DNA of 37,170 nt from a virus (lineage: Duplodnaviria; Heunggongvirae; Uroviricota; Caudoviricetes): the IMG/VR virus record IMGVR_UViG_2585427743_000015. One strand, given 5' to 3'. Shown here in pieces: positions 7,191 through 11,365 of the stretch. The translations under genes were made by a program, and so were the position numbers. The notes under the pieces are model-generated. The model saw only the letters and a list, made by a program, of their open reading frames with translations. It did not search any database and was not told the origin of the DNA. Position 1 is the first letter of the stretch; every line of letters begins with the position of its first letter.

Positions 7191-10013
7191 ATGACGACAG
7201 AGTACATCAGGGACTGGCAACAACCGCGCCACGCAGTGGGGCGTGAAGGAACGGGGATCCCCGCACCTGAATCCGCGCTTTCCTCCTGGCTGGATGCCTA
7301 CCAGGCAGAGAACGAGCGCCGACAGGAAAAGGCTGATGCGGCGTTCTCTGCCACGCCACTGGGCAACCTGATTAATAAAAGCCTGGACGCACAGGAAAAA
7401 CAGGACAAAACCATCACGCTGGCAGGAGACGCCAGAAGACAGGCACGCGGCGCGGTGGATGAAGCCATGGCCTCGCTGCGCCTGCTGCCGTCCTATCTGC
7501 GCGATCCGCTTATTCGCCACCTCTCCTTCCTGCGCAAAAAACAGGAAGTCGATCGCCGGAAAGGCAAAAAGAGCTGGCAGGCAGAACGCTATGCACGCGG
7601 AACCCTGCGCAAAATATTCGAACGTCTGGATCGCACTGACGGACACTGGCTGACACCGGGTTATCGCTCCCTTGCCGGACGCGAACGCCTGGACGATTTG
7701 CTTTACCTGCCGCAGCTCAACAAACACCAGATACAGACGCTGGCCACCATGACGGCGGCGATGTTCAGCAGCACCTTCGAAAAACTCTGCGATGGCTTTG
7801 GTGCGACTGATGGCGAGCTGACCATGGATGTAACGCTGAAGGCGTATCAGATGCTGGCCCGCATGGCGTTACACCTGCACGCCATGCCTCCGCATTATGA
7901 CGCACTGACAACAGACAAAGGCCGGAGGAACGAACCAGACACGGAGCTGCTGCCGGGCGCAATCCTTCGCCTGACCTGTGCGGAATGGTGGAAACGCAAA
8001 CTGTGGCTGTTACGTTGCGAGTGGAGAGAAGAACAACTCCGCGCCGCCTGTCTGGTTTCCAGAAAAACATCGCCCTATCTGAGCCAGGATGCGTTAAGCG
8101 AGTTTCGCGCACAGCGCGAGAAAACACGCGATTTCCTGAAAAGTTTCATGCTGGAAAACGAAGACGGGTTCACGATTGATCTTGAGACAGTGTATTACGC
8201 GGGAGTAAGTAACCCGGTTCACCGTAAGGCAGAAATGATGGCCACCATGAAGGGGCTGGAACTTCTGGCCGAAGCCCGTGGCGACAGAGCGGTGTTTCTG
8301 ACTGTCACCACCCCTTCGAAGTACCACGCAACAACGGAGAACGGTCATCCGAATCCCAAATGGAACGGGGCCACTATGCGCGACTCCAGCGATTACCTGG
8401 TTAACTCGTTTTTTGCGGCGGTCCGCAAGAAACTGAACCGCGACGGCCTGCGCTGGTATGGCATCCGCACGGTGGAGCCTCACCATGACGGCACCGTGCA
8501 CTGGCATATGATGGTCTTTGCTCATCCGGAAGAAATCGACACCATTGTGTCCCACACCCGCGATATTGCCATTCAGGAAGATCGTCACGAGCTGGGTGAT
8601 GATATTACCCCACGCTTTAAGGCAGAGTACGTCGACGGCTCAAAAGGCACACCGACCAGCTACATCGCCACCTACATCGGAAAGAACCTGGACAGCCGCG
8701 CCGTGGATGGTATCGACCCGAAAACGGGCAAGCCACGCGTTGACCACGAAACCGGAAAATCAATGGCCGAGAGCGTGGAGCGCGCCATCGGCTGGGCGCG
8801 CCTTCACCGGGTCCGCCAGTTCCAGTTCTTTGGCATCCCCTCCCGTCAGGTGTGGCGTGAACTGCGCCGCCTTGCCAGCCAGATGGCACGCAACCCGGAA
8901 GGCCCGCAACGGCTGAAGGATGACGCAATGGATGCAGTGCTCGCTGCCGCTGATGCCGGGTGTTTTGCCTCCTACATAGAGAAACAGGGCGGCGTACTTG
9001 TTCCACGCCAAGACTACCTGATTCGCACCGCCTACGACCTCGCAGATGAGCTGAACGATTACGGCGAACAGAGCGTACAGATTTACGGGATCTGGTCACC
9101 ACTCATCGGGGAATCCTCCCGTGTGTGCACGCATCCGGATAACTGGAAGCTGGTAAGACGCAAACCGGAAGCGGAAGACAGCGCCCGCGAAAATGGTTTT
9201 GACCTTCAGGGCGGCCCTGCCGCCCCTTGGACTCGTGGCAATAACTGTCCCCGTGTACAGGAAACAGGCAACAACGGGACAGAACAGCCGGAAGAACGGC
9301 CAGCACCGTGGCCGCAGCTCCCTGACGGCGTTGAAGTGAACGAATGGATGCGCTCACTGAAACGGCACGAACGCCGGGCGCTGATGCGTTCGCTGCGTGA
9401 CAAGCAGGCAAAAAACAGCAGTGATGAAATGCAGAACTGGACACAGAGCCGCAAACAGCCACGGCCTTTGCCTGATAACCACGAATTACTCGCTAAAGAA
9501 TGGCGGGAATCTGCCGAATCTCTCGGCCTGCATATCGGTGAACAGCAGATGCAGCACCTGTTACGGGGCGGCAGCCTGTACGTTGACGGCAGCATCATTG
9601 CACCACAGGGATTTGAAATTGTACGCAAACCGGATACCCGCCCGGACAGCCGAATCACGCAGCTCTGGCAGCACCTGAGCCGTAATCACGGCGTAAGCAG
9701 CACGGAGATCCGCCATAACCCGGTCGCCAGCTATCTGGAACAGCTGGGGGCATCAGACCCCGAAGCCGCCGCACGTCTGGCATCCACACTTCAGCAGGAC
9801 CAGAACACCATGAAAACCCCCGTTACCGTGCTTTCTGACATGCTGCGCGCCATTCGTGACGCAGAGCACGCACAGAGAATCAGTGAAACAACTGAACGCG
9901 CCCGCCGCAAAGCAGACCTGCTGCGGGGTGGCCTGACCAGTAGAAACAAAAAACAGACAGAAACGGGATTCACAAATCCCGTAAATGAGCAAAAAACGCG
10001 CCGCGATATATGA
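7191..10013 (+). CDS. A: Replication initiation endonuclease, rolling-circle type (P2 gpA family)
   Basis: 940-aa ORF; HUH-type motif 'GTVHWHMMVFAH' and tyrosine motif 'YIATYIGKN' as in P2 gpA; longer than P2 A as remembered. Confidence 0.85.
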   Translation: MTTEYIRDWQQPRHAVGREGTGIPAPESALSSWLDAYQAENERRQEKADAAFSATPLGNLINKSLDAQEKQDKTITLAGDARRQARGAVDEAMASLRLLPSYLRDPLIRHLSFLRKKQEVDRRKGKKSWQAERYARGTLRKIFERLDRTDGHWLTPGYRSLAGRERLDDLLYLPQLNKHQIQTLATMTAAMFSSTFEKLCDGFGATDGELTMDVTLKAYQMLARMALHLHAMPPHYDALTTDKGRRNEPDTELLPGAILRLTCAEWWKRKLWLLRCEWREEQLRAACLVSRKTSPYLSQDALSEFRAQREKTRDFLKSFMLENEDGFTIDLETVYYAGVSNPVHRKAEMMATMKGLELLAEARGDRAVFLTVTTPSKYHATTENGHPNPKWNGATMRDSSDYLVNSFFAAVRKKLNRDGLRWYGIRTVEPHHDGTVHWHMMVFAHPEEIDTIVSHTRDIAIQEDRHELGDDITPRFKAEYVDGSKGTPTSYIATYIGKNLDSRAVDGIDPKTGKPRVDHETGKSMAESVERAIGWARLHRVRQFQFFGIPSRQVWRELRRLASQMARNPEGPQRLKDDAMDAVLAAADAGCFASYIEKQGGVLVPRQDYLIRTAYDLADELNDYGEQSVQIYGIWSPLIGESSRVCTHPDNWKLVRRKPEAEDSARENGFDLQGGPAAPWTRGNNCPRVQETGNNGTEQPEERPAPWPQLPDGVEVNEWMRSLKRHERRALMRSLRDKQAKNSSDEMQNWTQSRKQPRPLPDNHELLAKEWRESAESLGLHIGEQQMQHLLRGGSLYVDGSIIAPQGFEIVRKPDTRPDSRITQLWQHLSRNHGVSSTEIRHNPVASYLEQLGASDPEAAARLASTLQQDQNTMKTPVTVLSDMLRAIRDAEHAQRISETTERARRKADLLRGGLTSRNKKQTETGFTNPVNEQKTRRDI

Positions 10014-10055
10014 AGCGCGCACAAAACAGGCGAAAACGGGATTTAAAAATCCCGT
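9963..10055. promoter_or_regulatory. Two 20-bp palindromes (ACGGGATT..AATCCCGT), candidate parC-like centromere/operator sites
   Basis: 'ACGGGATTCACAAATCCCGT' at 9963-9982 (inside the 3' end of gpA) and 'ACGGGATTTAAAAATCCCGT' at 10036-10055, 73 bp apart, both just upstream of parM. Confidence 0.35.
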
Positions 10056-10089
10056 AAACGATTAATTAATCAACATAAGGAAAATCGAC

Positions 10090-11049
10090 ATGAAAATTTG
10101 TATCGACGACGGCTCCACCAACATCAAGCTGGCATGGACTGAGAACGGCGAACGCCGCAACGCCATCAGCCCGAACAGCTTCAAGTCGGAATGGTCTGCG
10201 CCGTTCGGTGGCACGCAGCCCGCGAACTACATGCTTGATAGCGTGCGCTATGGTTTTGATCCGGTCAGCGATCGCTTTGTCCAGACGACTGACACGCAAT
10301 ATCAGTACAGTGATGTGAATGTCATTGCCATTCATCACGCGCTGGTCAAATCAGGCATCACGCCACAGGAGGTGGATGTGGTTGTCACCCTGCCACTGAG
10401 CGAGTATTTCGACACAAACGCACAGCCGGACATGGCCAACATCAACCGCAAAAAAGCGAACGTTATGCGCCCGGTGGAATACCAGAACGGCGAAGCATTC
10501 ACTATCCGTAATGTACGGGTTATGCCTGAATCCATTCCGGCTGGCTTTAAGGCACTGGCTGACATGAGTCCGTTTGAATCCCTGCTGATTGTGGATTTAG
10601 GCGGAACCACGCTGGATGTGGCAAAGGTTCAGGGACAACTGGCAGGTATCAGCCAGGTGTTTTGCGATCCACACGTAGGCGTTTCCCTGATGGCCGATGC
10701 CGTACTGTCGGTGATGGCCACTAACGGTATGCGTACCAGTCACCACATCGCCAATACCATTATTGAGCACCGTCACGATGAAGCCTGGCTGCGCCAGCAC
10801 ATTCACAATGACGCGCATTACAACAGCCTGATGGCGGTTATTCGTGAAAAGGAGGAGACACTGAAACAACGAGTGATCCGCGCGCTGGCGGGTTTTTCCG
10901 GTTACGGGCGGGGGATGGTTGTCGGTGGAGGGGCGGAGATTGTGGCACCCGCTATCCGCGAAGCCTGCGGAGTTAATGCGACTTTCATCGCGGACGGGGT
11001 GCCACAGTTTGCTCTGGTTAATGGGCTGTACGCAATGGACAAGGAGTAA
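10090..11049 (+). CDS. parM: ParM/StbA-family actin-like segregation ATPase
   Basis: 319-aa ORF; N-terminus 'MKICIDDGSTNIKLAW...ISPNSFK.EW...QYSDVNVIAIHHAL' and later 'PESIPAGF...IVDLGGTTLDV...GGGAE...LVNGLY' match plasmid R1 ParM as remembered. Confidence 0.85.
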   Translation: MKICIDDGSTNIKLAWTENGERRNAISPNSFKSEWSAPFGGTQPANYMLDSVRYGFDPVSDRFVQTTDTQYQYSDVNVIAIHHALVKSGITPQEVDVVVTLPLSEYFDTNAQPDMANINRKKANVMRPVEYQNGEAFTIRNVRVMPESIPAGFKALADMSPFESLLIVDLGGTTLDVAKVQGQLAGISQVFCDPHVGVSLMADAVLSVMATNGMRTSHHIANTIIEHRHDEAWLRQHIHNDAHYNSLMAVIREKEETLKQRVIRALAGFSGYGRGMVVGGGAEIVAPAIREACGVNATFIADGVPQFALVNGLYAMDKE

Positions 11050-11053
11050 ACCA

Positions 11054-11365
11054 ATGACGACACCAACCAGACGGATAAGTTTCTATCTGAAGCCTGCGGC
11101 CGTCAAGAACGAAAGCGAAGCATGCGCCTGGCTGGACAGCCTTACACCAGAAGCCCGCAAAAGCGGCCAACGCGTGGCTTTTCTGGCTGGGCTGGCACTT
11201 CTGAAAATGAATCCAGCAGAGGCTTACCGACTAGCTGCATGGGCTGACGATGAGGCGTTATCCGTGACACAAACCAGGACAGAACGCCCCGTGTCACAGC
11301 CAGTACCAACCGCACAGATAACCAGTCAGATGGCCGGAAATATCAGGGCGTTATTCCCCGAATAA
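11054..11365 (+). CDS. parR: ParR-like centromere-binding protein
   Basis: 103-aa ORF starting 4 bp after parM stop; 'RRISFYLKP...LDSLTPEARKSGQRVAFLAGLALLKMNP' and C-terminal 'IRALFPE' parallel R1 ParR. ATG at 11054 chosen over the ORF-track start. Confidence 0.7.
   Translation: MTTPTRRISFYLKPAAVKNESEACAWLDSLTPEARKSGQRVAFLAGLALLKMNPAEAYRLAAWADDEALSVTQTRTERPVSQPVPTAQITSQMAGNIRALFPE

Follow-up and report, generated by a model that had tools for sequence, protein, structure and literature searches.

A ParM/ParR partition cassette as a core module behind the replication gene of P2-like Xuanwuvirus prophages

The DNA analyzed in this study is a stretch of 37,170 nucleotides (nt) (IMG/VR record IMGVR_UViG_2585427743_000015; hereafter the window) that represents a prophage of the genus Xuanwuvirus (P88-like, Peduoviridae), which belongs to the P2 family. 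Its plus strand contains a two-gene cassette of the type II partition class. The first gene, parM (10090-11049), encodes an actin-like segregation ATPase of 319 amino acids (aa). It is followed by parR (11054-11365), which encodes a putative centromere-binding adaptor of 103 aa and has its ATG at 11054, 4 nt past the parM stop codon. The cassette is located downstream of the gene for gpA (7191-10013, plus strand), a P2-type replication endonuclease that initiates rolling-circle replication (Pfam PF05840, 8.7e-130), and the gpA gene ends at 10013, 76 nt before parM. Two exact 20-bp palindromes are found at 9963-9982 and 10036-10055. The initial annotation of this stretch had proposed a ParM/ParR cassette directly after the replication gene and preceded by these two palindromes. 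All of these elements are present, and the assignment is borne out by matches to Pfam families and to R1 ParM structures.

ParM matches the Pfam families StbA_N (PF06406, 8.2e-82) and ParM C-terminal domain (PF21523, 5.4e-67), both over the full length, and the PDB chains of ParM from plasmid R1 (e.g., 1mwk, E=7e-91, residues 2-316). The similarity to R1 ParM and ParR, initially put forward from the sequence, holds in pairwise alignments with the proteins of an R1-type IncF plasmid, in which ParM is 46% identical over 318 aa and ParR 34% identical across the N-terminal 56 aa. The motifs IDDGSTNIKL, VMPESIPAG, DLGGTTLD, and GGGAE are retained in the ParM alignment. Following published ParM work, we take the nucleotide-binding and hydrolysis residues (R1 numbering) to be the phosphate-1 motif DDGSTN, E148, D170-LGGTT, and the adenosine motif GGGAE. 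An NCBIfam search with ParM gave only a sub-threshold match to PRTRC_D. parM is under strong purifying selection: among ten copies from Escherichia, Salmonella, and Citrobacter prophages the ratio of non-synonymous to synonymous substitution rates (dN/dS) is ~0.06 (mean dS 0.11, mean dN 0.007), the differences are mostly synonymous, and the open reading frame (ORF) is intact in all ten.

ParR matches the Pfam family Plasmid_stab_B (PF10784, 1.7e-24) and PHROG 2515 (2.5e-58), and PHROGs labels both ParR and ParM ‘partition protein’. A PDB sequence search with ParR gave no match at E<=1. All ParR alleles keep an N-terminal RRISFYLKP strand and a C-terminal N-I-x-x-x-F-P tail. This tail, (K/R)-x-N-(A/I)-x-x-L-F-P in its longer form, aligns with the C-terminal KKNAMKLIN of the R1-type ParR, presumably the ParM-binding peptide described in published ParM-ParR work. 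The dN/dS of parR is 0.10 for the N-terminal domain (residues 1-62) and 0.33 for the linker and tail. Within Escherichia, the identity of ParR clusters falls from 96% to as low as 52%, with ParM at 98-99%. The dS between parR allele groups (including the parR genes of loci L003, L004, and L010) is ~0.8, compared to ~0.11 for the adjacent parM, and this jump locates a recombination breakpoint close to codon 18 of parR. On the basis of these substitution rates, we regard parR as a mosaic gene.

The two palindromes share the layout ACGGGATT-N4-AATCCCGT with 8-bp arms (ACGGGATT/AATCCCGT). Each forms the core of one unit of a 42-nt direct repeat, and the two units are 83% identical and 73 bp apart. 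Repeat unit 1 (9947-9988; core ACGGGATTCACAAATCCCGT at 9963-9982) lies inside the last gpA codons, while repeat unit 2 (10020-10061; core ACGGGATTTAAAAATCCCGT at 10036-10055) is located in the gpA-parM intergenic region, with its core 35-54 nt upstream of the parM ATG. No further copy of the palindrome pattern was found in the window with three mismatches allowed. The chance expectation for the pattern is 0.12 matches, and at least two matches occurred in 1 of 100 shuffles. Across 11 related prophages the GGGATT/AATCC core is near-invariant and the 4-nt spacer and the outermost bases vary. A GGG-N10-CCC pair with a distance of 72-73 bp, whose second site lies 52-59 nt before the parM ATG, is conserved in three lineages, at positions 9965/10038 in the window, 6338/6410 in a Plesiomonas prophage (L013), and 7873/7946 in a Hafnia prophage (L014). 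Elsewhere, GGG-N10-CCC is encountered only about once per 2-5 kb. Since the Hafnia prophage has an extra ORF of 167 aa between gpA and parM, the site pair travels with parMR and not with gpA. The Serratia and Enterobacter prophages encode longer ParRs with a different N-terminus and have a different inverted repeat of 14-20 nt instead, as expected for co-evolving adaptor-centromere pairs. Between the parR alleles, all of which contain the RRISFYLKP strand, the palindromes are unchanged, and no covariation of alleles and palindromes was found, the DNA-reading strand and the sites being common to the alleles. A GC-rich inverted repeat (CGCGC...GCGCG; 9997-10019, plus strand) is situated between the palindromes and spans the gpA stop codon (10011-10013). 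A compensatory pair of changes, C to T with G to A, keeps its pairing in phages 520873 and 503458, and the repeat may be part of the cassette or independent of it.

A scan of positions 9700-10090 revealed neither a consensus sigma-70 promoter nor a plus-strand terminator-like site upstream of parM. A terminator-like hairpin with a T-run (11577-11596, plus strand) is found downstream of parR in the variable cargo region and is likely the end of the rightward early transcript. Because gpA and parMR are on the same strand with a gap of 76 nt, no promoter or terminator was found between them in the scanned region, and a terminator-like site follows parR, parMR is predicted to be co-transcribed with gpA. 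The arrangement suggests that parMR belongs to the transcript of the early/replication operon and would be expressed in the absence of the repressor. In the E. coli (window 10065-10073), Plesiomonas (L013, 6440-6448), and Hafnia (L014, 7976-7984) prophages, the motif ATTAATCAA is retained ~17-29 nt before the parM start in otherwise diverged surroundings, and it could represent a -10-like element or a different signal. A weak promoter candidate overlapping this motif, TTTAAA-17-ATTAAT (10042-10070), was discerned by eye only and was set aside as unsupported; a weak promoter that overlaps the second palindrome and ATTAATCAA is possible.

Within the genus Xuanwuvirus, the cassette belongs to the core. 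Over the cassette region, the window matches the chromosome of E. coli TW10722 with 99.9% identity, and phages P88, Chuche, PhiR44_2, phiSM, P88_4B11, 520873, and others with 94-98%. The similarity between Xuanwuvirus genomes stops exactly at the parR stop codon, with a variable slot beyond it, and parMR is therefore part of the core, the cargo starting after parR. In the window, this slot between parR and the portal gene is occupied by a DUF3800 gene (11597-12403, minus strand; Pfam 3.5e-10) that matches the PADLOC candidate defence model PDC-M04A (2.6e-35), and related phages carry unrelated cargo there. Among 5426 complete E. coli genomes, 1308 (24%) contain the cassette, and 1454 of the 1456 copies are chromosomal. 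In related phages, RefSeq already annotates the genes as ‘plasmid segregation protein ParM’ and ‘partition protein’, so that the cassette was already publicly known as far as annotation goes. The unexpectedness for an integrative phage that was attached to the cassette at first was overstated.

In a collection of 50,697 phage records, the ParM family is confined to Xuanwuvirus phages and phage-plasmid D6 (47.5% identity). More than 5000 plasmid records contain a ParM homologue, all less than 60% identical with the exception of seven records, six of which contain the prophage itself and one of which has a homologue at 60-80%. The next-closest ParMs in a large protein database originate from Plesiomonas (62%), Hafnia (61%), Serratia (58%), and Enterobacter (53%). 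All four contexts were inspected and proved to be P2-like prophages with the organization gpA-parM-parR-variable cargo-portal/terminase. The order gpA, parM, parR is thereby kept in five genera. The contexts of three inspected homologues with an identity of 52% or less are plasmid- or ICE-like (integrative and conjugative element) and include Rep3, ParA/ParB, or Tra genes. The phage ParMs form two groups outside the plasmid clades in a neighbour-joining tree calculated without bootstrap, which would fit one ParM capture as well as two. In a scan of genome contigs with the single protein, all matches were near-identical copies, from E. albertii, S. enterica, and a ‘Vagococcus’ assembly. The latter is a draft of ‘Vagococcus sp.’ (Firmicutes; L012, NZ_JBQPOM010000071.1) in which a 226-kb contig encodes a ParM with 97% protein identity and has a closely matching upstream region. 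This contig is most likely enterobacterial contamination.

At the ends of the window we found a tyrosine integrase gene (1-1002, minus strand; PF24624 and PF00589) and a tRNA-Leu/Cys/Gly cluster (36168-36470), followed by pgsA, in agreement with the initial description of an integrase-bearing P2-like prophage by a tRNA cluster. The prophage copy of the window lies between int and the leuZ-cysT-glyW/pgsA region. A Hok/Gef-family gene (35017-35157, plus strand) is also encoded, and with parMR present as well, the phage thus possesses relatives of both classic R1 maintenance loci. Two further observations concern the early region. Rfam matches to isrK (6262-6336, plus strand; 65.9 bits) and to the adjoining C4 antisense RNA (6372-6459, plus strand; 87.1 bits) overlap an Ash-family ORF (6148-6822), and the pair looks like a P1/P7-style antisense immunity element within a P2-like prophage. 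Upstream, a gene for an SPFH/Band 7 family protein (5318-6148, plus strand; 6.5e-31), in whose place the P88 annotation has a lipoprotein/serine protease, is a further variable cargo gene of the early region.

The cassette is a type II partition system of the R1 family, and nothing in it departs from known mechanisms. It resembles the archetype, R1/NR1 ParMRC (parA/stb), in the gene order parC-parM-parR (with the palindromes as candidate parC), in its ParM with the catalytic motifs kept, in its ParR from the same Pfam family and with a common C-terminal K-x-N-x-x-x-L tail, and in the repeated sites upstream of parM, which form two blocks ~70-95 bp apart in both systems. The two also differ. 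R1 is a low-copy theta plasmid, whereas the cassette described here resides in an integrating P2-like phage with a rolling-circle initiator. The parC of R1 is made up of 11-bp direct iterons in two sets of five, with 94 bp between the two blocks in the R1-type plasmid that we read, instead of two 20-bp palindromes. Finally, R1 ParR has 117 aa, while the phage ParR has 103 aa and does not contain the internal TTxSxIxxL helix region that R1 ParR and the longer phage ParRs have kept.

We consider it somewhat probable, by a narrow measure, that parMR and the two palindromes form a working ParMRC machine in which ParR sits on the palindromes, its tail recruits ParM, and the filaments move the phage's own extrachromosomal replicating circles. 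ParR dimers would bind both palindromes of the gpA-parM junction via the invariant N-terminal strand and the conserved C-terminal tail would capture ParM, upon which ATP-driven ParM filaments would push ParR-bound phage circles apart or polewards. The substrate would be the phage's own extrachromosomal circular DNA, and the system would act as long as the early/replication operon (cox...gpA-parM-parR) is on, either between infection and integration or once induction and excision have taken place. In P2, rolling-circle replication by gpA yields monomeric circles, which are the packaging substrate. An active spacing device is plausible for this reason, and its role would be to organize or separate the monomeric circles produced by gpA. 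A stable plasmid lifestyle is probably not involved, and the integrated prophage would be inherited passively.

Two experimentally studied elements show that type II and actin-like systems are not limited to plasmids and phage-plasmids, as had been assumed too strictly at first. In SXT/R391-family ICEs, srpMRC stabilizes the excised, rolling-circle-replicating form and is expressed only together with the excision genes (Carraro et al., 2015; PMC4489591). As in the window, where an integrase gene and parMR are both encoded, a type II locus is thus carried by a normally integrated element with its own recombinase, and it is thought to be relevant only in the transient excised state, being co-regulated with excision functions. 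The kinship between SrpM and R1 ParM is only distant, and SrpR resembles none of the known ParRs (PMC4489591), whereas the phage ParM and ParR are clear members of the R1 family. In addition, the ICE is a conjugative element and the window a virus, in which derepression normally leads to lysis, so that the selective logic may differ. The second element is prophage CGP3 of Corynebacterium glutamicum, in which AlpAC connects the circles, once excised, with actin-like filaments and is required for their efficient replication (Donovan et al., 2015; PMC4446434). AlpAC/alpS likewise combines an actin-like filament former and a DNA-binding adaptor in an integrated prophage. Its adaptor binds repeats upstream of the operon, and the genes are induced early after prophage induction (PMC4446434). 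It differs in the reversed gene order with the adaptor first, in its Gram-positive host and cryptic prophage, and in AlpC, which belongs to a different actin-like family with no ParM-style dynamic instability (PMC4446434).

Several points weigh against a working ParMRC machine. If the genes are expressed in the lytic pathway only, segregation to daughter cells would be without obvious benefit, and the payoff may lie either in the efficiency of replication or packaging or in lysogen yield, through delivery of a copy to both daughters before integration. The number of candidate binding sites is two, compared to ten 11-bp iterons in R1 parC, and two palindromes could be just an operator. Within Xuanwuvirus, the intergenic region shows no excess conservation (94.0%, vs. 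93.4% at third codon positions of parM). The AlphaFold model of the ParR monomer has a low confidence (predicted local distance difference test score, pLDDT, of 56), with helices at residues 20-61 and 86-100 and an unstructured N-terminus, which leaves the ribbon-helix-helix fold unconfirmed. Such a poor monomer model is compatible with an obligate dimer and is not unexpected for one, without being proof of it. Furthermore, parM clusters of shortened length exist (188-261 aa, some entries labelled partial), and the module may be broken in some copies. Our literature searches brought up no work on the function of ParMR in P2-like coliphages; in the phiSM paper, the gene is just listed among putative ‘fitness’ factors.

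The cassette can also be seen in the light of a facultative phage-plasmid, i.e., a low-copy plasmid, carrier state, or episomal lysogen that forms if integration fails or if attB is missing or occupied, with the Hok/Gef-type killer gene as a second plasmid-style maintenance module. We consider this unlikely. The record pZ1323PEC0009-2 (NZ_CP148288.1), deposited as a circular ‘plasmid’ of 34,461 bp from an E. coli isolated from a cat, fits such a lifestyle, as it holds an entire P88-like phage, with the circle closed at the int end, and an identical phage is integrated in the chromosome of the same-series strain Z1323HEC0067. The P2-like Burkholderia phage KS14 is moreover a proven plasmid prophage that combines a P2-like virion module with plasmid maintenance genes, including ParA and RepB (PMC3091744), and D6, the sole other phage with this ParM family in the collection, is a phage-plasmid with a StbA-type partition system. 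Both D6 and KS14, however, have plasmid lysogeny and plasmid-type replication functions, whereas the phages described here have a tyrosine integrase and gpA only and are chromosomal in more than 99% of the E. coli copies. No Rep3/RepA/RepB-type gene was found among those window ORFs that were scanned or in the P88 annotation. gpA is the sole initiator found, and it is a rolling-circle protein of the early lytic operon. In PLSDB, seven records have a DNA match, of which only pZ1323PEC0009-2 is a phage-sized circle, and the rest are large plasmids, misassigned replicons, and a degraded linear contig. The lone circle can be explained as excised, replicating phage DNA after spontaneous induction. 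A match to a Shigella boydii ‘plasmid’ was disregarded as uninformative, as it is a linear prophage fragment riddled with insertion sequences. The episomal maintenance option raised in the initial annotation is thus poorly supported: nearly all copies are chromosomal, no plasmid-type replicon was found beside gpA in the ORFs scanned and in the P88 annotation, and a single whole-phage circle is on record.

A repurposed module, as also suggested at the outset, is possible in general terms, although our results speak rather for a function, conserved and under selection, in the extrachromosomal phase of the phage. In its specific forms, namely ParR as a transcriptional regulator of neighbouring genes, partition-type incompatibility or exclusion that targets ParMRC plasmids or related phages, or an action on the chromosome of the lysogenic host, we rate repurposing as quite improbable. 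Its operator-like trait is the presence of two palindromes only, and the cassette adjoins the variable defence/cargo slot with the DUF3800 gene. A degraded prophage remnant of O157:H7 still retains intact gpA-parM-parR. However, a full motor with intact ATPase motifs under the purifying selection measured for parM is unnecessary for a mere regulator. PADLOC gave no defence-model match for ParM or ParR, and we rejected a reading of ParMR as a known defence system on this basis. parR is far more allelic than parM, a pattern sometimes seen in conflict or specificity genes, but the alleles create no new DNA specificities because the DNA-reading strand and the palindromes are invariant between them. 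Cross-incompatibility with IncF plasmids is unlikely as well, since the iterons of the R1-type parC are unrelated in sequence to the palindromes. A non-functional relic of an old plasmid-phage recombination, carried passively, is very improbable and effectively refuted by the selection and synteny data: the shortened parM clusters and the deposited phage 503458, in which parM is split into several ORFs, point in its direction, whereas the low dN/dS at a dS of ~0.11, the intact ORFs, a gene order that is constant down to 53% ParM identity, and the tight packaging-size limits on phage genomes stand against it.

What is new here is that the cassette, under selection, has long been part of the core of a broad P2-like clade, that a two-site element with conserved spacing accompanies it in three lineages, and that parR is mosaic. 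A wider proposal, which we put forward as tentative and consider doubtful, is that P2-like phages of the Enterobacterales have long used a ParM spindle in their viral cycle, either for spacing rolling-circle products ahead of packaging or in a hidden facultative episomal or carrier state. Partition systems serve as a marker of plasmids and phage-plasmids, and an R1-family ParMR that is core to a very common family of integrating prophages matters for the automated classification of mobile elements. It also raises the question of what benefit an integrating phage draws from an actin-like DNA pusher, which is testable in tractable hosts, namely E. coli K-12 or C with P88, phiSM, or PhiR44_2. If the module proves dispensable, the cassette would be merely a correctly annotated accessory operon. 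If the wider proposal holds, this would be the first case of a type II segregation machine at work in an integrating tailed E. coli phage, with a minimal two-palindrome centromere unlike R1 parC, and would extend the precedents of ICEs (srpMRC) and Corynebacterium (AlpAC) to the classical coliphages.

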